From an uncultured delta proteobacterium (GTDB lineage: Bacteria > Desulfobacterota > Desulfobacteria > Desulfobacterales > SpSt-501), in assembly GCA_963716785.1 (NCBI GenBank), contig CAVQUW010000005.1, positions 1,699 to 65,698 of the forward strand: a stretch of DNA of 64,000 nucleotides, read 5' to 3'. The notes beneath the pieces are model-generated. The model had not been told where the DNA came from. It was given only the letters and a program-made list of their open reading frames with translations, and did no database searches. The position numbers and the translations under genes are program-made. Position 1 is the first letter of the stretch, and each line of letters starts with the position of its first letter. Below are positions 3,432 through 30,459 of the stretch, one piece after another.

Positions 3432-4412
3432 TCAGCGCCGAAACACCTCCGGGTTGACCGTGTGCCGCGGCCGCCGGCCGCCGGCGAGCTCGATGATCTG
3501 CTCGACGATGAAGACGCTCATGTTGTTCATGCCCTCGTAGGTGAAGGCGGCCGTGTGCGGGGTGAGCACCACGTTCTCGAGGGTCAGCAGAGGCGAGTCG
3601 ACCGGAGGCTCCTGCTCGAACACGTCCAGGCCGGCCCCGGCGATGACCCCGGCCTTGAGCGCCTGAAACAGGTCGGCCTCGTTGACGATGCCCCCGCGGG
3701 CGGCGTTGATCAGGAGCGCGGTCGGCTTCATCAGCCTCAGGGTGCGGGCGTCGATCAAGCCCCGGTTCTCATCGGTCAGCGGCGCGTGGATGCTGACGAC
3801 GTCGGCGCACTCGAGCAGGTCCTCGACCGTCATCCGTTCTATGCCCTGCTCCCGCGCAAACTCCTCCGGCCAAAACGGGTCGTGGGCCACGACCTTCATC
3901 TGGAAGCCCTTCGCCCGCAGGGCCACGCAGCGGCCGATGGCCCCCAGGCCGATCAGCCCCAGGGTCTTGTTCCAGATCTCGAGCCCCATGATCTTCGTGT
4001 GCTCCCAGCGCTTCTCCCGCAGGCTGCGGTCGCAGTAGAGCATCCGGCGCGCCAGGCACAGGATCATGGCGAACGTGTGATCGGCGACGGCCTGATTGTT
4101 GGCCCCCGGGGTGTGGAACACGGGGATCCCCCGGCGGGTGGCGGCGGCCACGTCGACCGTGTCCAGGCCGGCGCCCTGCTTGGCGATCGCTTTCACCCTC
4201 GGGGCCATGTCGAGCAGAGCGTCGTCCACGCGCAGGTCGTTGCCGCACAGGATGACGTCCGCCTTGGCCAGCGCCGCGTCAAAGCCCGCCTGCCCGACCC
4301 CTGAGCCGCGCATGTCGATCAATTCGAAGCCTGCCTGGCGGAGATCTTCCATGGGTTTTTTGTCGAAGGCGCAAAACGGCCGCGACTCGATCAGGACGGT
4401 GAACTGTGGCAT
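3432..4412 (-). CDS. D-isomer-specific 2-hydroxyacid dehydrogenase (phosphoglycerate dehydrogenase-like, no ACT domain)
   Basis: The start MPQFTVLIES is at 4412. It has the GLIGLGAIGRCVA Rossmann motif and the ...INAARGGIVNE...LDVFEQEP...LTPH catalytic region. The track's upstream extension to 4754 runs through the repeat element. Confidence 0.85.
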   Translation of the reverse strand: MPQFTVLIESRPFCAFDKKPMEDLRQAGFELIDMRGSGVGQAGFDAALAKADVILCGNDLRVDDALLDMAPRVKAIAKQGAGLDTVDVAAATRRGIPVFHTPGANNQAVADHTFAMILCLARRMLYCDRSLREKRWEHTKIMGLEIWNKTLGLIGLGAIGRCVALRAKGFQMKVVAHDPFWPEEFAREQGIERMTVEDLLECADVVSIHAPLTDENRGLIDARTLRLMKPTALLINAARGGIVNEADLFQALKAGVIAGAGLDVFEQEPPVDSPLLTLENVVLTPHTAAFTYEGMNNMSVFIVEQIIELAGGRRPRHTVNPEVFRR

Positions 4413-4513
4413 GCGGAGACCCCTCCATAATTGATGAATAGCTGCGAACCAAAAAAAATTCTCCGAACGGTCCGCACATCCCACACTGACGGAACGCTGC
4501 CGGCTTTTGCTTC

Positions 4514-4600
4514 CAAGTAAGTTTACCTTTTTGGATTGGGCATCTTGCCGCGAAATGATCGCGGCTGGAAGCCGCTCCCACAAAAGACAAGACTTACTTG
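4514..4600. repeat. MITE-like copy D of the REP-like element, with 9-bp terminal inverted repeats
   Basis: The ends are CAAGTAAGT (4514-4522) and ACTTACTTG (4592-4600). The core is ggcatcttgccgcgaaatgatcgcggctggaagccgctcccaca. Confidence 0.8.
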
Positions 4601-4604
4601 ATGA

Positions 4605-4639
4605 TAAAGTGGCGCTGCGCGCCATGCGTCGCCTAGAAG
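4605..4639. repeat. Second repeat module, copy 2 (overlaps the purB stop codon)
   Basis: taaagtggcgctgcgcgccatgcgtcgcctagaag. The cta at 4633-4635 is the purB TAG stop. Confidence 0.75.
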
Positions 4640-17607: not shown

Positions 17608-17835
17608 GATGTCCGCCTCCTTCCGTGTTCGATCGGCCCGGCCGCGGTTCGGTCAGCGGAGGCCCTCGTATTCTTCCATCGTGCTGATCTACCTCACTTC
17701 CGGCGGTGGTTTCAAGACTTGATTTGCCCCTCGACCCGGGCCGGCCGCTCAAGAATTCCGGCGCCGGGGCCGATATCCTATCACGGTGTTCCAAACCATG
17801 TCGAAACACGAGGTCAAAACAGGGTCGACGGCAAA

Positions 17836-20073: not shown

Positions 20074-21850
20074 ATGTACAACGCCTATTTCGGATTCAGA
20101 GAAAAACCGTTCAAACTGGTTCCGAACCCCGAGTACCTGTTTCTGAGCAAAAGCCACGAAGAAGCGCTGGCGCACCTGAATTACGCCGTCTCGCAGGGGG
20201 ACGGCTTCGTGGAGATCACCGGGGAGGTGGGGACGGGCAAGACCACCCTGTGCCGCGCCTTTCTGGAGGGCCTGGACGAGCAGACGGTGGCGGCCTACAT
20301 CTTCAACCCCAAGCTGGGTCCGAAGCAGCTCATCAAGTCGATCAACGACGAATTCGGCATCGCCGGCGAGGCGGACAATACCAAGAACCTGATCGACAGG
20401 CTCAATGCCTTTCTGATGCAAAAAAAGGCGGAGCGCAAAAGGGTCATCGTGATTATCGACGAGGCCCAGAACCTGAGCAAGGTGGTTTTGGAGCAGCTGC
20501 GGCTGCTGTCGAACCTGGAAACCAACAAGGAGAAACTGCTCCAGATCATCCTCGTCGGGCAGCCGGAACTGGCGGAAATGCTCGAATCCTACGATCTGCG
20601 CCAGATCGGGCAGCGGATCTCCCTGCGCTACCAGATCAACCCGTTGAGCTTCAAGGAAGCCCAGGAGTACATCCAGTACCGGCTCAACATCGCCTCGCAG
20701 AAGCGCTCGGCCCTGTTCGAGCCGGCCGCTTACCGCCACATCTACAAGTACTCCCGCGGGATTCCGCGCCTGATCAACATCGCCTGCGACCGGTCGCTGC
20801 TCACCGCCTTCGGTCTCAACCAGCGCACCGTCAGCGGCTCCACCGCCAAAATCGCGGTGGCGGAAATGACCCACCGGGGTCATGCGAGCAGCATCGCGCT
20901 CATGGACGGCCGCAAGGCGCTCGCGCTCTTCCTGGTCCTGAGCGCCGTGATCGTCGCATTGCTCTACCACAAACCGTTGGTCGAAAAACTGTCCGGAATG
21001 GGCGCGCGTTCATCGCCGAAGGTCCAGCCGGCAGCCGCCGCGCACACCCCGGCCCTGCCGCCGGCGGCCGAGGAGGCCGCGGCACCTGAGGTCGCGAGGC
21101 CGGCCGAGCCGGTCGCCGCCGCACCGGTCCCGAGCCCGGCAACGAACCCCGTCACCACCGCCCCCGTCCCGGCACCGGCCGCACCCGCCAAGTCCGAGCC
21201 GAGCCTGGGTGAGCACTTGAAGAACCTTGGACAACAGGTCCTCGCGCTATTCGGCCCTGAAAAACGCCCTGACGGCCTGGGCCGCCACGCTCGAGCCCAA
21301 GCCTTACCTGGACCAGCTGGATGACGACCCCACCTTTTTCAGCCTTTACACCAAAACCAGCAACCTCCTGATTCATCGGTTCGAGGCTGAAGTCCAGACC
21401 CTGCGGAGCGTGAACATGCCCGCCATCCTGGAACTGCGCACGAGCCTCAAGACGCCCCCCCTTTATATGGCTCTGACGGCCTTCGAGGGCGACAAGCTCG
21501 TTCTGGCCACCGCGGAAGCGAACCGGACCCTGCGGGTCGACGCCAATGAGCTGTGGCAAAACTGGACCGGTGTGGCCTATGTCCCGTGGAAGAACTTTCT
21601 GAACCTGGCGGGCCTGATCCCCGGCACCGCACCACCGGACTCGGTGCTGGCGCTGAAGATGCTCCTGCAGGAAAACGGGTTCAGGGAGGTCCCCCTGAGC
21701 AAGGAGTACGATCAAACCACTCTGAAGGCCGTCGAAAAACTGCAGGCGAAGTACGGGGTGCCCGTCGACGGGATCGTGGGGCCCCTGACCAAGATCATCC
21801 TCTACCGGGAAAATCAAGGCCTGGACATCCCGCGTCTTGTCAAGAATTGA
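20074..21850 (+). pseudogene. exeA: ExeA/GspA-type AAA ATPase with TM segment and periplasmic peptidoglycan-binding domain; frame broken at about 21221-21260
   Basis: N-terminal part: MYNAYFGFREKPF...GEVGTGKTT...IIDEAQNL, then a TM (ALFLVLSAVIVALLY) and a Pro/Ala-rich linker. The C-terminal PG-binding domain (YDQTTLKAVEKLQAKYGVPVDGIVGPLT) is in another frame (track ORF 21227..21850), which has no signal peptide of its own. Confidence 0.8.
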
Positions 21851-22857: not shown

Positions 22858-24448
22858 ATGCGACCCGTGGCCGAAAAACACAACATCCTGATGGTGGCGG
22901 CGGAAAATGGGGCCCTGGCCGGCGGCAAGGTCGGCGGGTTGGGGGACGTGATCCGCGAAGTGCCCCCCGTTCTGGCGAATCACCACTGTGCGGTGAGCGT
23001 CGTCACCCCCTCCTACGGGTTCCTTCACCGCCATGCGGATCCCCAGGCGACCGCCGTGCTCGAGTTCGACTTCGGCGGCGAGCGGCATCAAGCCGCCGTG
23101 CTCCAGGTCCAAAGCCGAACCCCGGCCGCCGGCGTCACCCACTTTGTCATCGACCACCCCGTGTTCGAATCGCGCGACCCCGTCACCGGCCGGCACCGCA
23201 TCTACACCCCCGACCCTTCCGACGCCCCGTTTGCCAGCGACGCCACAAAATTCGCCCTTTTCGGGACGGCGGTGGCGGAAGCCGTGAACACAGGGTGTTT
23301 TCGGCCGACTGACCTGCCTGCACCTGCACGACTGGCACGCGGCCTTCGTCCTGATCCTGCGGCGCTGCGACGAGGGCTACCGGGAGTTGCAAGCGACTCG
23401 CACGGCATTCTCGATCCACAACCTGGCGCTTCAGGGCGTGCGCCCCTTTCAGGGTCACCCTTCTTCTTTCAAGTCCTGGTTCCCGGGGCTGCAACCGGAC
23501 TGGCGGGATGTGATCGACCCCCGCTGGCCGGTGTGCATCAACCCCATGGCTGCCGCCATCCGCCTGGCGGACTCGGTCCACACGGTGTCGCCTTCCTATG
23601 CGGCGGAGATCCTGAGCCCGAGCGACCCTCCCCGCTATTTCGGGGGCGAAGGTCTCGAGACGGACCTGAGCCTCGCCGACGCCCAGGGGCGGCTGCACGG
23701 CATCCTGAACGGGTGCGCCTACCCGCCGGGGCGCGTCGCGCCGCGGCGCAGCCACCCGGAGCTCTCCGCCCTGCTGCGCTCGCAGCTCATCCGCTGGGCG
23801 GGGGCCCAGGATTTCGTTGCCTGCGCCCACTTCATCGCCCAGGCCCGGCTGGGGGCGCTGGCGGAAAGGGCCGCCCGCCCGCACATGCTCCTCACCGCCG
23901 TCACCCGCGCCGTCGAACAGAAGCTGCTGCTGATGAAGTCAGCCGGCACCCGCTGCCCCTCAGGCCTCGAGGGCATCCTCGAGACGCTCGGCGACCAGGG
24001 CGTCTTCATCCTGCTCGGAACCGGTGACCCGGCCTACGAGAAATTCCTGACCGAGACCAGCTCGCGTTTCGACAACTTCGTCTTTTTGAACGGGTACTCG
24101 GACGCGTGCGCCGAGGCGCTCTATGCGTGCGGGGACCTGTTCATGATGCCGAGCTCCTTCGAGCCGTGCGGGATCGGCCAAATGCTGGCCATGCGCGACG
24201 GCCAGCCCTGCCTCGCCCACCGCATCGGCGGCCTGAAGGACACCGTCGAAGACGGGGTCACTGGGTTCACTTTCGGCGGTGATTCGGTCGCGGCGCAGGT
24301 CGACGGCATGCTCCGCACCCTTGACCGGGCCATCGACTTGAAGAGCGAAGACCCCGCCGCCTGGGATAAAATTCGGCACAACGCGGCCGCCGCCACTTTC
24401 GACTGGGACGAGTCGGTCCGCCGCTACCTCGCCCAACTCTACACCTGA
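22858..24448 (+). pseudogene. glgA: Glycogen synthase (ADP-glucose type); frame broken between 23288 and 23308
   Basis: Frame 1: MRPVAEKHNILMVAAENGALAGGKVGGLGDV...AVAEAVNTG. Frame 2: (F)GRLTCLHLHDWHAAFVLIL...FEPCGIGQMLAMRDG.... Frame 2 has a TGA at 23285-23287, so the shift lies in the GGG/TTTT tract at 23293-23300. Confidence 0.9.
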
Positions 24449-24588
24449 GCCCCTCTCCGGGCACCCTCATCCTCACTCTTCACGCAACCGCGGATCGTTG
24501 TCTTCCCGGCCGCGGGCGTACGCCCACCTCAAGGCACCACGGGGAGCTTCTCCCTGCCCCAGGCCTGGATACCGCGGCGCATGTTGGA
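24288..24588. repeat. Left 301-bp direct repeat (glgA 3' end, intergenic spacer, rhodanese 3' end)
   Basis: Aligns base for base with 26763-27063 (offset 2475). I see 2 mismatches, at 24306/26781 and 24532/27007. Confidence 0.95.
24529..24588 (-). pseudogene. Orphan 3'-terminal fragment (19 codons plus stop) of the rhodanese gene
   Basis: Encodes SNMRRGIQAWGREKLPVVP*, identical to the C-terminus of the intact gene at 27004..27693. Homology stops at the repeat boundary. Confidence 0.85.
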
Positions 24589-24881
24589 CCCCCGAATAAG
24601 AATCGCAGCGGGTGACGACCAAGCGGAGGTCACGTGCACGGATTGAGACCGCGAGCGAACGGTTCCGATCATTGGCCCGAACTGAACTGCCCCCACTTTT
24701 TCCGGTAGAGCGGCATTTCCGCTCAAGAATACTGATCCCGTACCGATATATAAGTATTTACTACGTAATCAACAGCAGGCCGCAGCATGGTGCCGCATCT
24801 GGAAAAGAAATTGATTTAATTATAATTTGATTCTCGACAGACGCCTCGATTCATCCCCGGTGACAATTGGAGACCCCGGTC

Positions 24882-26762
24882 ATGCCGATACACCCCGTGT
24901 TGAGAGATACGGAAGGAAAAGAAATCAAACTTCCGACCCTGCCTGGGGTCGCGTTGAAAATCCTTGACGCCACGAATGGGCAGGCTTCCGGGGTCAATGA
25001 AATCGCAAAAATCATCGCATGCGATCCGCCGCTCAGCGCCAAGATTTTGAGCATCGCTAATTCTCCATTTTTTGGCCTTAAGACCCCGGTCTGCACCGTC
25101 CAACAGGCGCTGGCACTTCTCGGCCTCAATACCGCCGTCAACCTGGCCCTCAGTTTTTCGCTTCTCAACCGGTTTTCGAACAGGAATCGATCCTCCTTCG
25201 ATTACAGGCGGTTTTGGAAAGACTCCCTGGTGGGCGCCATGGCGGCCCAGACGATCGCCGAAGCAGTCCGGGCCCCATTCGCCGGCAGCACCTTTTTCAT
25301 CGGCCTGCTGCAGAACATCGGCAGCCTGATTCTGGCCGAATCCCTGCCCCGCGGCTACGCGCTGGTCGCTGCTGACATCAGTGGCGGCGATCTGCCCTTG
25401 CATTCTGCCGAGCGGCAGCACCTCGGCATCGATCACATGGAACTCGGAGAGCAGCTCTTTCGGGTTTGGGGGCTACCGGAATTATTCTCGGCCGGCATCA
25501 AGTATCATCATCACATCGAGGAACTGCCCACGCGTTCTGGGCCGGAGAAGGATCTCTCCGAGATCCTTCAGCTCTCCGCCTTGTTCATCGAGCTCTTCAG
25601 CGAGCCGGATTCACGGCCGGCGGCCGAGTCGATCAGGGCATTTCTCAAACGCCGCGCCTATCCCCACCCGGTCAGGGTGGAATCGATTGCCGAGGCGATC
25701 AGCGAAAAAATCAAGGTTGTGTTCCCGGTGTTCGAGATAGATGTGGATGAAAACGAGCTCATCCGCATCATCGAAGCCGCCAAAGAGTCACTGACGCAGC
25801 TATCCGGCAACCTTATCATGCAGCTTCATAGCCAGTCGAGACAGATGAAAACCATCAGCCGGATGGCGGAACGCGACGGGCTCACCGGGCTTTACCATCA
25901 AAAACGATTCCGCGAGCTCCTGGATCAGGAGAACAGCCGGGCCGTGCGTTACCGGACCGCTCTTTCGCTCGTCATGGTCGACATCGACCATTTCAAGTCG
26001 GTCAACGACTTCTATGGGCATCTGGCCGGCGACCTGGCTCTGAAAACCATTGCCGACCACCTCAAACGGGAGCTGCGCGAATCCGACCTTGTCGCGCGCT
26101 ACGGTGGGGAGGAATTTGCGCTGATTCTGCCTTCAACCGGGCTCGAAGATGCCGTGAGGGTCGTTGAAAAGCTCATGAAAACAATCAACGCCCTCACCAT
26201 TTCCCACAACGGCAAGTCCTTTTCATTGACGGCCAGCTACGGCATCGCCGCATTGACGGACTACCACCAACCGGCGTCGGAAGCTTTGCTGAGCATGGCC
26301 GACGAGGCATTGTACGAGGCGAAAAATGGGGGCAGAAACAGGTACTGCTGTTTCAAACCACCAGTGACCAGCAGCCAAAAGCCCATGGTCATGGTCGTCG
26401 ATGATGATGATTTCATCCAGGTAACGGTGCCCAAGATGCTCGAACGACTGGGTTGTTCGGTGGTGTCGGCCAAAGGAGGCCAGGAAGCAATCGACACCTT
26501 CCAAACACATGCCGAACGGATCGACATGGTCCTGCTTGATGTGGGCATGCCGGGACCCAGCACCGAGGAAATTATGTCGGATATCAAGAAAAAAAATCCC
26601 GACACGCGAGTCTTCATCTCCAGTGGCTTTGCCGTCGATGATATCGGGGAGAGTCTGATCACGATGGCGGAAGGCTTTCTTCAGAAACCCTATGGAATGG
26701 AGAAGCTGGCCCAAGCAATCGGCCCGGCGGCGAGGAAGCATTCACAGCCACGGGGTGTGTGA
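24882..26762 (+). CDS. HDOD-GGDEF-receiver three-domain protein (diguanylate cyclase with intact GGEEF)
   Basis: ATG 24882 lies 9 nt after GGAG. The N-terminus is HDOD-like (LPTLPGVALKILD...DPPLSAKILSIANSPFFG...). The GGDEF domain has DGLTGLYHQKRF...DIDHFKSVND..GH..GD...RYGGEEFALIL. The C-terminus is REC-like (MVMVVDDDDFI...MVLLDVGMPG...). The gene is visibly lower in GC and richer in A/T-ending codons than its neighbours. Confidence 0.9.
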   Translation: MPIHPVLRDTEGKEIKLPTLPGVALKILDATNGQASGVNEIAKIIACDPPLSAKILSIANSPFFGLKTPVCTVQQALALLGLNTAVNLALSFSLLNRFSNRNRSSFDYRRFWKDSLVGAMAAQTIAEAVRAPFAGSTFFIGLLQNIGSLILAESLPRGYALVAADISGGDLPLHSAERQHLGIDHMELGEQLFRVWGLPELFSAGIKYHHHIEELPTRSGPEKDLSEILQLSALFIELFSEPDSRPAAESIRAFLKRRAYPHPVRVESIAEAISEKIKVVFPVFEIDVDENELIRIIEAAKESLTQLSGNLIMQLHSQSRQMKTISRMAERDGLTGLYHQKRFRELLDQENSRAVRYRTALSLVMVDIDHFKSVNDFYGHLAGDLALKTIADHLKRELRESDLVARYGGEEFALILPSTGLEDAVRVVEKLMKTINALTISHNGKSFSLTASYGIAALTDYHQPASEALLSMADEALYEAKNGGRNRYCCFKPPVTSSQKPMVMVVDDDDFIQVTVPKMLERLGCSVVSAKGGQEAIDTFQTHAERIDMVLLDVGMPGPSTEEIMSDIKKKNPDTRVFISSGFAVDDIGESLITMAEGFLQKPYGMEKLAQAIGPAARKHSQPRGV

Positions 26763-26923
26763 TCGCGGCGCAGGTCGACGACATGCTCCGCACCCTTGAC
26801 CGGGCCATCGACTTGAAGAGCGAAGACCCCGCCGCCTGGGATAAAATTCGGCACAACGCGGCCGCCGCCACTTTCGACTGGGACGAGTCGGTCCGCCGCT
26901 ACCTCGCCCAACTCTACACCTGA
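26763..26923 (+). pseudogene. Orphan 3'-terminal fragment of glgA (161 nt including the stop)
   Basis: Copy of 24288-24448 with one G-to-D codon difference. No upstream glgA sequence is attached. Confidence 0.85.
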
Positions 26924-27063
26924 GCCCCTCTCCGGGCACCCTCATCCTCACTCTTCACGCAACCGCGGATCGTTGTCTTCCCGGCCGCGGGCGTACGCCC
27001 ACCTCACGGCACCACGGGGAGCTTCTCCCTGCCCCAGGCCTGGATACCGCGGCGCATGTTGGA
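26763..27063. repeat. Right 301-bp direct repeat
   Basis: See 24288-24588. It begins immediately after the TGA stop (26760-26762) of the GGDEF gene. Confidence 0.95.
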
Positions 27064-27693
27064 TACGCGCTTGAACCCGTTGTCGATCAGGATCTTGGAG
27101 GCGACCGTGCTGCGGTTGCCCGTGGCACAGTAGACCAGGATCTCCCTGTCCCTGTAGTCCGCGATCTCCCGCCACCGGCGCTGCAGTTCCTGCACCGGTA
27201 TCAGAACGGCGTTTTCCAGGCGCACCTGCCCGAACTCGGCCGGCGTGCGCACATCCAGAATCAGCGGACGGTGGCTGCGGATCAGATCGGCGGCCTCCTG
27301 CGACGAGACTTCCCGGTAGCTTTCCTGCCGGTACTCGACGACTGAAAGACGCCCCGAAGCCTCACCCAAGGTAAACGGGAACACCCCCGTCTGCTCCATT
27401 TTGAAAAAGGGGGCCTCGCCAAAGCCCGCGGGCAGGCGGCGTTCGATGGCCAATCCCGGGATCGACAGAGCCGCTTCGGTCGCCGCGCCGTCGAAATGGA
27501 ACTTGATGTAGTCGCCGCGATAGACGGTCAGTGCCAGGTTGCGGGCATGCGGCGGGACGGTCAGAACCCGGTAGCCGTCGACAATGCGGCCGGAGACCGG
27601 CTGAGGCGGAGCGGCCTCATCCCCGGCGGCGAGCCCAAGGGGCGCACCGATCAGCAGAAGCGTCAGGCAAACGCCTGCAAGCGTTTTGTTCAT
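27004..27693 (-). CDS. Exported rhodanese-domain protein with an N-terminal beta-rich domain
   Basis: Start MNKTLAGVCLTLLLIGAPLGLAAG (signal peptide) at 27693. The C-terminal rhodanese has active-site loop YCATGNRS. Confidence 0.85.
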   Translation of the reverse strand: MNKTLAGVCLTLLLIGAPLGLAAGDEAAPPQPVSGRIVDGYRVLTVPPHARNLALTVYRGDYIKFHFDGAATEAALSIPGLAIERRLPAGFGEAPFFKMEQTGVFPFTLGEASGRLSVVEYRQESYREVSSQEAADLIRSHRPLILDVRTPAEFGQVRLENAVLIPVQELQRRWREIADYRDREILVYCATGNRSTVASKILIDNGFKRVSNMRRGIQAWGREKLPVVP

Positions 27694-28739: not shown

Positions 28740-29915
28740 TCAGCTTTGGGTGGCTTTCTTGTATAGGGGGGAGATGCGGCGCAAAGTCGTGACCACGTTC
28801 TTGAGCGAAACGAGAAAGGTGTCGACATCCGCCGCGGTGTTGTCGATGCCGAAGGAGACCACCAGGGTCCCCTGGGCGTCGGCGTGGCTGAGCCCGAGGG
28901 AGAGCAGCACGTGTGAGGCACGCAGCGACCCCGTGGCGCAGGCCGAGCGGGTGGAGACCGCAATGTTGTCGTCGTCCAGCATCAGCATGACGCTCTCGCC
29001 CTCGATGTACTGGATGGACATGGAGACGAGGTGCGGCAGGCTGTGCTCGGGGTGCGTGTTGATGATGACCTCGTCGACGTACCGCGGCAGATCGCTCAAC
29101 AGCTTGTCCTTCAGCCCCTTGAGATGGGCGTAGCGCTCGTGGATGTCGCGCGCGGCGAGCTCGGCCGCCTTTCCCATGCCGATGATCCCGACCAGGTTCT
29201 CGGCCCCGGCGCGCTTGTTGCTCTCCTGGACGCCGCCGTCGAGCAGGGGGAACACTTTCGTCCCGCGCCGGATGTAGAGCCCGCCGACGCCCGTGGGGCC
29301 GTAGAAGGTGTTGGCGGCAAAGCTCACCAGATCGGCCCCGAGCTTTTTCACGTCGAGCGGCACGATCCCGATCGAGTCCACGGCGTCGGTGTGGAAGATG
29401 GTCTTCTTGTCGCGCGCGATCCGGCCGATCTCCTCGATCGGCTGGATGGTGCCGGTCTCGTTGTTGCTGTGCATGACGGAAATGAGTATGGTCTCATCGG
29501 TGACGGCCTCGGCCACATCCCGCGGGTTCACCCGCCCCTTTTCGTCCACCGACAGCGAGGTGACCGTGAACCCGTCCGACTTCAGGCGCCGCAGGCTGCG
29601 GATGACGGCGTTGTGCTCGATGTTGGTGGTGACGATGTGCTTGCCCTTGCCCGCGTTGGCCATGGCCACCCCCTTGATGGCATGGTTCACGGACTCGGTC
29701 CCCCCGGAGGTGAAAACGACCTCCTTGGGGTTCTCGGCGCCCAGCAGACCGGCCACCTGCTGCCGGGCTTCATCCAAGGCGGCGGCGGCTTCCTCGCCCG
29801 CCTTGTGCTGGCTGGCGGGGTTGTGGAGATCCCGGTTGATGGCATCGATCATCGCCTGCTTGACTTCCGGCAGCAGAGGATTGGATGAGATGTGGTCCAG
29901 GTTGATCGTGGTCAT
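28740..29915 (-). CDS. nifS: NifS/IscS-family class V aminotransferase-fold protein (the canonical PLP lysine is not present)
   Basis: Start MTTINLDHISSNP at 29915. Contains TSGGTESVNHAIKG, TTNIEHNAV, HTDAVDSIG and the active-site Cys loop STRSACATG. The usual SxSGHKxxGPKG motif reads SFAANTFYGPTG. Length is 391 aa. Confidence 0.85.
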   Translation of the reverse strand: MTTINLDHISSNPLLPEVKQAMIDAINRDLHNPASQHKAGEEAAAALDEARQQVAGLLGAENPKEVVFTSGGTESVNHAIKGVAMANAGKGKHIVTTNIEHNAVIRSLRRLKSDGFTVTSLSVDEKGRVNPRDVAEAVTDETILISVMHSNNETGTIQPIEEIGRIARDKKTIFHTDAVDSIGIVPLDVKKLGADLVSFAANTFYGPTGVGGLYIRRGTKVFPLLDGGVQESNKRAGAENLVGIIGMGKAAELAARDIHERYAHLKGLKDKLLSDLPRYVDEVIINTHPEHSLPHLVSMSIQYIEGESVMLMLDDDNIAVSTRSACATGSLRASHVLLSLGLSHADAQGTLVVSFGIDNTAADVDTFLVSLKNVVTTLRRISPLYKKATQS

Positions 29916-29943
29916 GGTCAGCCCCCTTGCCCGCCAGCGGCGA

Positions 29944-30459
29944 TCAGTGCTCTTCGTTGAGGTCGTGCTGGCACGCCTCGCAGAAGGAAGACTCGGTTTC
30001 GAGCTCGACGTCGCAATAGGGACAATAGCACTTGTCGCCGTGGGAATGTTCGTGCTCGTCCTTGCGCTTGGGCTCTGGCCGGGTGATTCCGGCTTTGCGG
30101 TCCTCGAAATCCTTGATGGCCAGCTGCAGGGCGTCGGCGCCGAGGTTGGAGCAGTGCAGCTTGTTCTTCGGCAGCCCCTCGAGCGCCTCGGCCACGTCCT
30201 TGTTGGTGATTTTTTTGGCCTCCGCCAGGGACTTTCCCCGGGCGATCTCCGTGAGCATGCTGGACACGGCGATGGCCGAACCGCAACCGAAGGTCTGGAA
30301 TTTGATGTCCTCGATGCGATCGTCATCGATTTTCAGATAAATCGTCATCATGTCCCCGCAGAGGGGATTGCCGACCTCGCCCACGCCGTCCGCGTCTTCG
30401 ATCACCCCCACGTTGCGGGGGTTCCGGAAGTGATCCATCACCACTTTGTTGTACATCAT
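29944..30459 (-). CDS. nifU: IscU/NifU-type Fe-S scaffold with a C-terminal Cys-rich (zinc-ribbon-like) tail
   Basis: Start MMYNKVVMDHFRNPRNVG at 30459. The three scaffold Cys sit in the contexts LCGD, GCGS and LHCS. The tail reads HEHSHGDKCYCPYCDVELETESSFCEACQ. Confidence 0.9.
   Translation of the reverse strand: MMYNKVVMDHFRNPRNVGVIEDADGVGEVGNPLCGDMMTIYLKIDDDRIEDIKFQTFGCGSAIAVSSMLTEIARGKSLAEAKKITNKDVAEALEGLPKNKLHCSNLGADALQLAIKDFEDRKAGITRPEPKRKDEHEHSHGDKCYCPYCDVELETESSFCEACQHDLNEEH

Follow-up and report, generated by a model that had tools for sequence, protein, structure and literature searches.

[quoted passage not shown] It constitutes a described class that is mechanistically unexplained and that almost only concerns restriction systems (PMC2853133). 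In this class, a short gene unit without transposase or integrase, and often of atypical GC, is found in one genome but missing from a relative. Its flanking direct repeats measure tens to ~420 bp, each can be aligned with the single-copy target, and they can overlap the 3′ ends of genes (Furuta, Abe & Kobayashi 2010, PMC2853133). A single-gene case is provided by an mcrA homologue of Burkholderia sp. 383, whose repeats match at 384/412 positions (PMC2853133, PMC2993543). DNA breakage by the nuclease of the cargo has been suggested as the driver of the class (PMC2853133); the class has been called upon for "other DNAs" as well (PMC3457768).

Here, we analyzed a window of 64 kb (the whole stretch of DNA under study) that holds a comparable insert. 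With respect to the features by which the class was delimited in PMC2853133, the insert is absent in relatives with alignable flanks, both of its repeats align to the single-copy empty site, the duplication (301 bp now, and at least 313 bp originally) exceeds 30 bp, and the 2174-bp insert is below 20 kb, carries no mobility genes, and is flanked by a repeat that is neither a tRNA nor an att sequence. By contrast, the cargo is not a restriction or restriction–modification system as in that survey but an HDOD-GGDEF-REC protein with no nuclease domain; restriction cargo is, however, a criterion of restriction–modification surveys and not necessarily part of the definition of the class. The earlier note on this DNA had called such an acquisition unusual, a judgment to be moderated, as the footprint is that of a described class, albeit one almost confined to restriction systems.

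The footprint is also identical to that of Campbell integration, as in suicide-plasmid or episome co-integrates, where the homologous segment is duplicated around the insert and where neither interrupted gene need be damaged as long as this segment covers the ends of both; both arrangements are reversible by recombination between the repeats. Here, in contrast, there is no known replicon, vector-like content, or donor circle, and the arrangement is ancient and found in two lineages.

Concerted evolution by gene conversion is a known feature of duplicated bacterial sequences, such as tufA/tufB or the rRNA operons. Likewise, the within-genome copies of the repeat studied here are far more alike than orthologues and have lineage-specific substitutions in common, but they are just 301 bp long, in direct orientation, 2.2 kb apart, and half non-functional, and recombination between them can equally remove the gene in between. 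An insertion shown to be old, with a duplication kept by concerted evolution in two lineages, is unreported in the published accounts of the class (PMC2853133, PMC3457768, PMC2993543).

Results

Anatomy of the Locus

The insert is bracketed by two direct repeats of 301 bp (24288–24588 and 26763–27063), which differ at 2 sites according to a repeat search and a MAFFT alignment, and of which there are exactly two copies within the 64-kb window; at 99.3% identity, such a repeat cannot have arisen by chance. One mismatch (24306 G vs. 26781 A) changes GGC (Gly) to GAC (Asp) in an orphan tail of glgA, and the other (24532 A vs. 27007 C) is synonymous (CCT/CCG, Pro) in the last codon of a rhodanese gene. 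The repeat unit runs from the final 161 nt of glgA through an 80-nt spacer into the terminal 60 nt of the rhodanese gene (minus strand). The left copy, which aligns with the single-copy junction of the related contigs L047 and L050, comprises the functional 3′ end of glgA (24288–24448, with the stop codon at 24446–24448), the spacer (24449–24528), and an orphan rhodanese tail (24529–24588, minus strand), and the right copy comprises an orphan glgA tail (26763–26923), the spacer (26924–27003), and the functional 3′ end of the rhodanese gene (27004–27063, minus strand). The earlier note had proposed the repeat pair with its two mismatches, their coding effects, and the origin of the repeat in the convergent glgA/rhodanese junction; the first is confirmed by the repeat search and the alignment, and the other two can be read directly. 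Its description of the sequence is borne out in full.

Both resident genes are reconstituted, with the duplicated segment in direct orientation around the insert, as in Campbell-type integration. On the left, glgA (22858–24448, plus strand) encodes a glycogen/starch synthase, with Pfam Glyco_transf_5 and Glycos_transf_1 matched on both halves; in the window, it consists of two reading frames split by one extra base at 23287, an A that is missing from L050 and L047. On the right, the 229-aa rhodanese-domain gene (27004–27693, minus strand) is identified by Pfam Rhodanese, by its 229-aa orthologues P0241 and P0242, and by synteny.

The insert itself (24589–26762) has a GC of 0.56, against 0.653 for the window and 0.64–0.68 for the flanking genes, and its gene has a GC3 of 0.705 in both carriers (the window and the second lineage presented below), against 0.81–0.91 in neighboring genes. 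The composition of the cassette is atypical in both carriers, and the AT-richer insert with one gene that had been announced is indeed there. The gene is preceded by a non-coding 5′ leader (24589–24881, plus strand; GC 0.51), which is 73% identical to that of contig L001 of the second carrier, with conserved islands, and which presents one sigma-70-like match (24643–24672) and a GGAG Shine–Dalgarno motif 8 nt ahead of the ATG. We presume that this leader carries the cassette gene's own promoter or regulatory region. It shows no homology with the body of the rhodanese gene, its small ORFs have no match in Pfam or PHROG, and the tRNA and Rfam search gave no match, with no tRNA in 15000–36000.

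Pfam and PHROG yielded no mobility gene in the insert, in agreement with the claimed absence of integrase and transposase; no rep gene was found in the insert either, no terminal inverted repeats pair its ends, no plasmid or phage matches the cassette, and there was no sign of a replicon, a circle, or a donor context. An IS or transposon, already discounted in the earlier note, is rejected here for the lack of transposase and of terminal inverted repeats and for a duplication of 301 bp instead of the expected 2–14 bp. An integrase-driven island or prophage is rejected as well, with no recombinase in the insert, no tRNA in 15000–36000, no phage match, and 20 kb of collinearity with L047. The locus could still be what is left of a larger island, inserted by an integrase at an att site formed by the gene-end junction and later stripped of this integrase and of its other genes: integrative elements do rebuild the 3′ end of the gene that they target and generate direct repeats, and there are known restriction–modification units that have an integrase and sit at tRNA genes (PMC2853133). 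This scenario is nonetheless very unlikely, because the insert retains no fragment of an integrase, tRNA, or other gene, both carriers show the same minimal one-gene content, the repeat is 10 times longer than a usual att core and is host sequence throughout, and the surroundings are collinear with L047.

The Cargo Gene

The cassette gene (24882–26762, plus strand) encodes a 626-aa protein with the Pfam domains HDOD (E-value 1.5e-52), GGDEF (2.3e-45), and Response_reg (3.8e-17), and its TGA (26760–26762) directly adjoins the right repeat; Pfam and coordinates here concur with the three-domain HDOD-GGDEF(GGEEF)-REC gene initially described. An alignment with 8 homologues shows conservation of RYGGEEF, of the RESD (RxxD I-site) that precedes it by five residues, and of VVDDDD, LLDVGMPG, and QKP; the features of a diguanylate cyclase response regulator are present, namely the GG[DE]EF site and the acidic pocket, phospho-acceptor Asp, and Lys of the receiver. 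The cargo is predicted to be a diguanylate cyclase with a C-terminal receiver domain and, judging from its domains, it may synthesize c-di-GMP under the control of receiver-domain phosphorylation, with product feedback via the RxxD I-site. The gene is intact and conserved, and its dN/dS of 0.29 between the window and L001 suggests purifying selection since insertion.

The biology of this cargo is ordinary. HDOD-GGDEF-REC homologues exist by the thousands, nearly all of the best 120 carry all three domains, and such proteins from Desulfobacterota-type metagenomes have the same architecture and length (618–640 aa) as the cargo. Beyond the two carriers, the closest homologue is just 48% identical, and two distant homologues, compared for their gene neighborhoods, lie in ordinary chromosomal contexts by a ferredoxin-type gene, where no gene for mobility was called.

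Comparison with Related Genomes

Four lineages were compared, all of them metagenome assemblies: the window, L050, L001/L049, and L047. The collinear L047/L048 (81% aa identity in glgA) and L050 lack the 2174 bp and have the 301-bp segment just once, at an empty site; each repeat copy of the window can be aligned in full (301 bp) with this lone junction, at 82% for L050 and 73% for L047. Since these empty sites lie in syntenic relatives, the repeats represent a target duplication and the gene an acquisition; the comparison with relatives is hence positive for the earlier claim that the cassette was acquired and that the 301 bp duplicate a resident junction. The same end product would be reached if ~313 bp of the junction had first been duplicated in tandem and foreign DNA had been captured between the copies or recombined in later, an alternative discussed for rRNA genes (PMC3457768), but this order of events is quite unlikely, as it requires two rare events at one exact point and as no relative displays a bare tandem duplication (L047, L048, and L050 are single copy).

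A second carrier, GCA_975971425.1 (L001 and L049, hereafter lineage 2), is ~12% diverged in the flanks and has the cassette at the identical position with identical junctions. L001 begins inside the orphan rhodanese tail and ends inside the orphan glgA tail, and it overlaps L049, which bears the real rhodanese gene, by 32 identical nt; the real glgA end of lineage 2 is unrecovered, and its left repeat copy is visible for just 72 nt. With metagenome assemblies as sole data and a window contig that runs through a repeat exceeding the usual k-mer length, one may think of a mis-join or of a repeat that was collapsed or duplicated during assembly. Such an artefact is extremely improbable, however, given that both inner junctions are seen in two independent assemblies, that L001 breaks inside both repeats, as a real near-identical repeat predicts, and overlaps L049 perfectly, that the copies differ at 2 sites and one edge is decayed, and that the cassette gene is intact and conserved.

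Flank identities (0.933, 0.881, 0.879, and ~0.835) give the tree (((window, L050), L001/L049), L047), in which the closest relative of the window, L050, has an empty site. Between the window and L001, dS is 0.23 for the cassette and 0.28–0.32 for three flank genes. Among four lineages, one gain plus one loss is inseparable from one gain plus the import of an allele by homologous recombination.

The window and L050 are 14% diverged over ~24220–27155 (the repeat plus 70–90 nt on each side), against 3.4% in the body of glgA, so that the alleles coalesce deeper at this site than in the flanks. Vertical descent followed by a recent pop-out does not predict this divergence peak, and a strain-chimeric contig could mimic it.

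Age and Homogenization of the Repeats

Because a relative diverged by ~12% has the same junctions while its cassette keeps a low GC, the insertion is real but old, and neither recent nor a native arrangement. The earlier note had considered that relatives with the same architecture and a flank-like composition would indicate an ancient fixed arrangement: such an architecture does exist in a relative, but with a cassette that is not flank-like. The recency implied in that note is at odds with lineage 2, and the near-identity of the repeats does not testify to youth either. Indeed, orthologous repeats of the window and lineage 2 differ at 45–47 of 301 sites, against 2/301 between the copies of the window and 1/72 between those of lineage 2 (the probability of at most 2 differences for a mean of 45 being 3e-17), and 16 window-specific bases are common to both window copies, as are 8 lineage-2-specific bases to both copies of lineage 2. 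Since copies are alike within a genome and share lineage-specific bases when orthologous repeats are diverged, their near-identity points to concerted evolution by gene conversion.

Just inside the left copy (24589–24597), comparison with L001, L049, and L050 reveals the decayed remnant of ~12 further nt of duplicated rhodanese: L001 reads AACGCGTTCAAA, the real rhodanese gene reads AACGCGCTTGAA (L049) or AACGCGTTTGAA (L050), and the window reads CCCCCG---AA. Lineage 2 retains ~12 nt more of rhodanese homology, lost in the window, which shows that the original duplication spanned at least 313 bp and that the inner left edge of the window has decayed.

A recent Campbell-type integration in this strain, by single crossover of a circle with the cassette and 301 bp of homology, would exactly match the footprint, with nearly identical repeats and, on either side, one intact gene next to one orphan tail, and it would be in line with the empty site of L050. 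The single-crossover footprint claimed in the earlier note is thus present, but a recent event is contradicted by the shared, diverged cassette of L001/L049: the same architecture is found at 12% flank divergence, the cassette itself has diverged (dS 0.23), and a decayed edge beside a 99.3% identical core does not befit a young duplication. Moreover, no replicon, plasmid or phage match, or second cassette context was found, and a circle with such homology presupposes an earlier copy of the arrangement, which makes this scenario decidedly improbable.

Alternatively, the copies of the window and lineage 2 may be separate integrations of a recurrent cassette, guided by homology, whose excised circle (cassette plus one repeat) transfers and re-integrates at the junction. 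Identical junctions would be expected at every integration, the occupied/empty pattern departs from the flank tree, the window/L050 divergence peak is centered on the repeat, and the dS of the cassette is a little below that of the flanks; besides, Kobayashi's group proposed a "virus-like" cycle for restriction–modification units with long repeats, without evidence of release or re-entry (PMC2853133). However, if a donor circle entered a recipient that had diverged from it, hybrid, non-identical repeats should result, whereas the observed copies are 99.3% identical with shared lineage-specific bases, such that conversion would be needed anyway. Furthermore, the cassette is known from one site and two carriers only, dS is comparable in magnitude between cassette and flanks, and the divergence peak extends ~70–90 nt beyond the repeat. 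Separate integrations are therefore unlikely, and we are equally doubtful that the cassette and one 301-bp repeat form a self-propagating, enzyme-free mobile element, popping out as a circle by host recombination, transferring between related cells, and re-entering by homology at the glgA/rhodanese junction. If this were true, enzyme-free cycling would sustain an occupied/empty polymorphism across diverged lineages, populations could turn a c-di-GMP signaling gene on or off, or multiply it by tandem amplification, and units with long target duplications would be shown to cycle without a cargo-encoded nuclease.

Discussion

Overall, the locus is probably an old insertion with long target duplication, with a proposed founding event and later conversion of the repeats. 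In the ancestor of the window and GCA_975971425.1 lineages, a foreign fragment of ~2.2 kb, with one HDOD-GGDEF-REC gene and its own leader of ~290 bp, would have entered the convergent glgA/rhodanese junction. At least 313 bp of target would have been duplicated at this founding insertion, so that each resident gene kept an intact 3′ end and the spacer, and each repeat came to bear the orphan tail of the other gene. The comparison of lineages further suggests that the cassette gene was later held by purifying selection, that RecA-type gene conversion between the repeat copies homogenized each lineage while the left inner edge eroded, and that occupied and empty alleles both persisted among close relatives. 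As the repeats would permit scarless pop-out, and flanking homology the swapping in of either allele, the empty site of L050, the closest relative of the window, may result from one or the other.

Candidate routes for the founding event are the fill-in of a ~313-nt staggered break around captured foreign DNA, template switching, or the Campbell integration of a circle; the last of these would leave the same footprint as an insertion with long target duplication, and the sequence fits either.

A clean case with a signaling gene as sole cargo argues that a cargo nuclease is not required for this type of insertion, and the four-lineage comparison indicates that duplications of this length can survive while lineages diverge to a dS of about 0.2–0.3. 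Because gene conversion homogenizes the repeats, their identity is unusable for dating such insertions, which serves as a warning for annotation: near-identical flanking repeats do not amount to a recent event. Long duplications leave a scarless, reversible presence/absence polymorphism.

Results

The direct repeat of the window was delimited by repeat search and alignment to positions 24288-24588 and 26763-27063, two copies of 301 bp that differ at two sites, and it is the sole long direct repeat of the window, with no further copies elsewhere in its 64 kb. Read directly from the sequence, the repeat is made of the last 161 nt of glgA (TGA included), a spacer of 80 nt and the last 60 nt of the rhodanese-domain gene on the minus strand (stop included). 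The left copy completes glgA and adds an orphan rhodanese tail; the right copy does the converse, supplying the 3' end of the rhodanese gene (27004-27693) and an orphan tail of glgA. Orphan or noncoding sequence amounts to about half of each copy. Each repeat also supplies a copy of the intergenic spacer, so that one follows glgA and another the cassette gene; no terminator-like match or structure was detected in this spacer (fold z-score -1.0). The first mismatch (24306 G / 26781 A) turns Gly into Asp in the orphan glgA tail, and the second (24532 A / 27007 C) is synonymous in a Pro codon. What the earlier note had stated from the sequence about the repeat, the gene tails, the mismatches and the insert all holds on direct reading.

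Two neighboring genes deserve a mention. First, glgA (22858-24448, plus strand) carries one extra A at 23287 that breaks it into two reading frames (GTGAACAC vs GTG-ACCC in L050 and L047, two contigs of relatives), the public glgA protein of the window contig (P0121) being a truncated 353-aa product; the remainder of the gene shares 96.2% identity with its intact L050 counterpart, and the extra A either marks a genuine pseudogene or a variant within the population, or stems from an error of assembly. Second, the class-V aminotransferase (28740-30326, minus strand) has a mechanical ORF of 528 aa vs 391-aa orthologs in L047, L049 and L050; from this comparison, its true start most likely lies at 29915, and a NifU-like gene would precede it, as it does in the relatives.

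The insert between the repeats spans 2174 bp (24589-26762) and has a GC content of 0.56 vs 0.653 window-wide, which bears out the AT-richness that had been claimed for it. Its 5' part is a 293-bp leader (GC 0.51) with islands conserved between the window and the carrier of lineage 2 (see below), whose two small ORFs had no matches. The rest is the cassette gene (24882-26762), with HDOD, GGDEF and Response_reg domains (Pfam), a GC3 of 0.705 vs 0.81-0.91 in four neighboring genes, and a TGA that touches the right repeat. Aligned with homologs of 618-640 aa, the protein is full length; its RYGGEEF site is intact, an RxxD motif (RESD) lies five residues upstream, and the receiver domain retains the acidic pair, the phospho-acceptor Asp and the conserved Lys. 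On the basis of these domains, we predict a diguanylate cyclase controlled by phosphorylation and inhibited by its product, with HDOD as its N-terminal regulatory domain; the cassette gene has no kinase gene next to it. The C-terminal tail that follows the receiver differs between carriers through a 6-nt repeat expansion (SQPQPQ... vs SQPRGV; L001 ~2215-2250 vs window 26735-26762), and this tail varies in all homologs aligned. A GTG start overlaps the TGA of the cassette gene (GTGA) and opens a 54-aa ORF that is the orphan GlgA C-terminus (26759-26923); the overlap is kept in both carriers, with a gene called there in L001 (2247-2375), and possibly reflects translational coupling or a mere by-product of the junction.

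A search of the protein collection with the cassette protein gave 48% identity for the next-best homolog, so that no donor of the cassette can be named; two distant homologs lie in ordinary chromosomal contexts. For the cassette protein, the glgA C-terminal half and the rhodanese together, the best-named distant homologs come from Desulfobacterales or Thermodesulfobacteriota metagenome-assembled genomes, which suggests a Desulfobacterota-like taxon. In two distant homologs (44-48% identity), the HDOD-GGDEF-REC gene stands just upstream of a gene of ~360 aa with multiple ferredoxin domains (3334-4398 in contig L051; 7876-8976 in contig L053), and L047 harbors a similar 363-aa Fer4 gene (21159-21587) ~9 kb from its rhodanese gene, hinting that the association with a ferredoxin-type gene is possibly conserved.

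Relatives were traced by protein searches (cassette protein, glgA C-terminal half, rhodanese) and contig look-ups, which yielded three other lineages. The earlier note had proposed looking for the empty site in related genomes, and it was found, with one junction copy, in two of them: L047/L048 (JGI 3300037046 and Logan SRR11844785), where a glgA 81% identical in amino acids is followed by 85 nt and the rhodanese gene, and L050 (Logan SRR22388213), with an intact 529-aa glgA and an 81-nt spacer. The site is occupied in lineage 2, represented by two contigs of GCA_975971425.1. One of these, L001 (2377 bp), carries the cassette gene (86% in amino acids); its first bases belong to the orphan rhodanese tail and its last to the orphan glgA tail. 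The other, L049, runs from the real rhodanese gene through the spacer into the glgA tail and shares an identical 32-base overlap with the end of L001. For lineage 2, the end of the real glgA is absent from the data, a contig search with the glgA C-terminal half returning nothing closer than 54%. The right junction (TGA/TCGC) is identical in both carriers and the left junction is homologous. Because two independent assemblies agree on both inner junctions, it is very unlikely that the arrangement of repeats and cassette is an assembly artifact. Together, the empty relatives and the shared junctions imply that the 301 bp are a duplicated single-copy target and that the cassette is an insertion, which upholds the acquisition put forward in the earlier note. 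The window and L047 are collinear from 15.6 to 36 kb, with the cassette as the sole large insertion in the window; neither the window nor the relatives' loci yielded another copy of the cassette or any further copy of the repeat. L047 has for its part a 210-aa HD-domain gene (3998-4630, minus strand) with no counterpart in the window, at a further indel that interrupts the collinearity of these 20 kb (window ~17673-17676; L047 4021-4711).

Over 3.3 kb of right flank, nucleotide identity is 0.933 between the window and L050, 0.881 between the window and L049, 0.879 between L049 and L050, and ~0.835 between L047 and each of these three, which gives the tree (((window, L050), lineage 2), L047), along which the site is successively occupied, empty, occupied and empty. 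Between the window and L001, the cassette gene has a dS of 0.23 and a dN/dS of 0.29, when three flank genes of the same genome pair have a dS of 0.28-0.32 and a dN/dS of 0.10-0.17. The cassette is therefore about as old as the lineage split, and the recency of its acquisition is not borne out; judging from these rates, the cassette gene appears to be under purifying selection. The same architecture in a relative, combined with flank-like composition, had been held to indicate an ancient fixed arrangement; lineage 2 has the architecture, but the composition of the cassette stays atypical in both carriers.

A duplication of the same age as the cassette should have copies that are no more alike than the two carriers' orthologous repeats. 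These orthologous repeats differ at 45-47 of 301 sites between the window and lineage 2, whereas the two window copies differ at 2 of 301 (P(<=2 | mean 45) = 3e-17) and the two lineage-2 copies at 1 of the 72 sites that can be compared. A window-specific base is present in both window copies at 16 positions, a lineage-2-specific base in both lineage-2 copies at 8 positions, and at 10 positions the genomes show fixed differences although the copies agree within each genome. Such a pattern is the signature of copies homogenized by repeated gene conversion within each lineage. At the inner edge of the left copy, moreover, lineage 2 keeps ~12 extra nt of rhodanese homology (AACGCGTTCAAA vs AACGCGCTTGAA or AACGCGTTTGAA), where the window reads CCCCCG---AA; the original duplication was therefore at least 313 bp, and the homogenized core of the window shrank there. 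A decayed edge beside a core that is 99.3% identical supports conversion and is not expected of a young duplication. We also considered the leader as a decayed rhodanese copy left by a far longer original duplication, but it has no collinear similarity to the rhodanese gene, and the duplication was therefore never gene-sized; the 22 nt before the right repeat, taken as decayed glgA, match at 10 of 22 positions, which is indistinguishable from chance.

Neither a transposase, an integrase nor a replication gene was found in the insert (Pfam, PHROG), nor inverted repeats at its ends. No Rfam family reached its gathering score anywhere in the window (1-64000), and no tRNA was found in 15000-36000; plasmid and phage collections gave either no match or one confined to the conserved GGDEF core (about 70% identity). 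The earlier note had proposed a Campbell-type integration of a circle carrying the junction, and such an event, which leaves the same footprint as that observed, may have founded the arrangement, although it presupposes a molecule that already carried the glgA/rhodanese junction. A recent event of this kind in the window strain is refuted by the age of the cassette, shared with lineage 2, and by the concerted evolution of the repeats.

Discussion

With regard to the alternation of occupied and empty sites, recombination between the repeats would remove the cassette without a scar, and flanking homology would permit either allele to be swapped for the other, so that the simplest history is one gain, followed by loss or allele exchange. 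This history does not fully explain the divergence between the window and L050. From about 24220 to 27155, a span that takes in the repeat and 70-90 nt to either side of it (window ~24220-24588 and 27064-27155), 14% of sites differ, when the figure is 3.4% for the glgA body and about 5% for the remaining rhodanese gene. Window-specific and L050-specific changes are both raised in this repeat-centered peak. Low constraint is not its cause, because against L047 the glgA tail has diverged no faster than the glgA body; the alleles at the repeat site therefore coalesce deeper than the flanks. The peak suggests import of an allele by recombination into the window or the L050 lineage, or else a strain-chimeric contig; regarding the direction of import, the site patterns are 7:3:4 informative sites in the repeat, too few to favor either lineage.

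The arrangement can be compared with insertions with long target duplication, a class whose criteria were set by Nobusato et al. (2000) and used by Furuta, Abe and Kobayashi (PMC2853133): an insertion/deletion that distinguishes related genomes, repeats that both align to a single-copy target, a duplication above 30 bp (with examples up to 417/423 bp), an insert below 20 kb and no other mobile element (PMC2853133). A homolog of mcrA is a single-gene example. Furuta, Abe and Kobayashi suggested DNA breakage by the cargo as the driver (PMC2853133), and the same group proposed, without evidence, that such units re-enter genomes by Campbell integration (PMC2853133); a further paper invokes the class for "other DNAs" as well, and sets beside it a rival model in which a tandem duplication comes first and recombination follows (PMC3457768). 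Upkeep of the duplication by concerted evolution and exchange of alleles among lineages are not reported in this cited literature (PMC2853133, PMC3457768). The cassette agrees with the class in the points listed above and departs from it in its cargo, which is not a restriction system as in almost all published cases; it is a member of the class of insertions with long target duplication whose cargo is not a nuclease.
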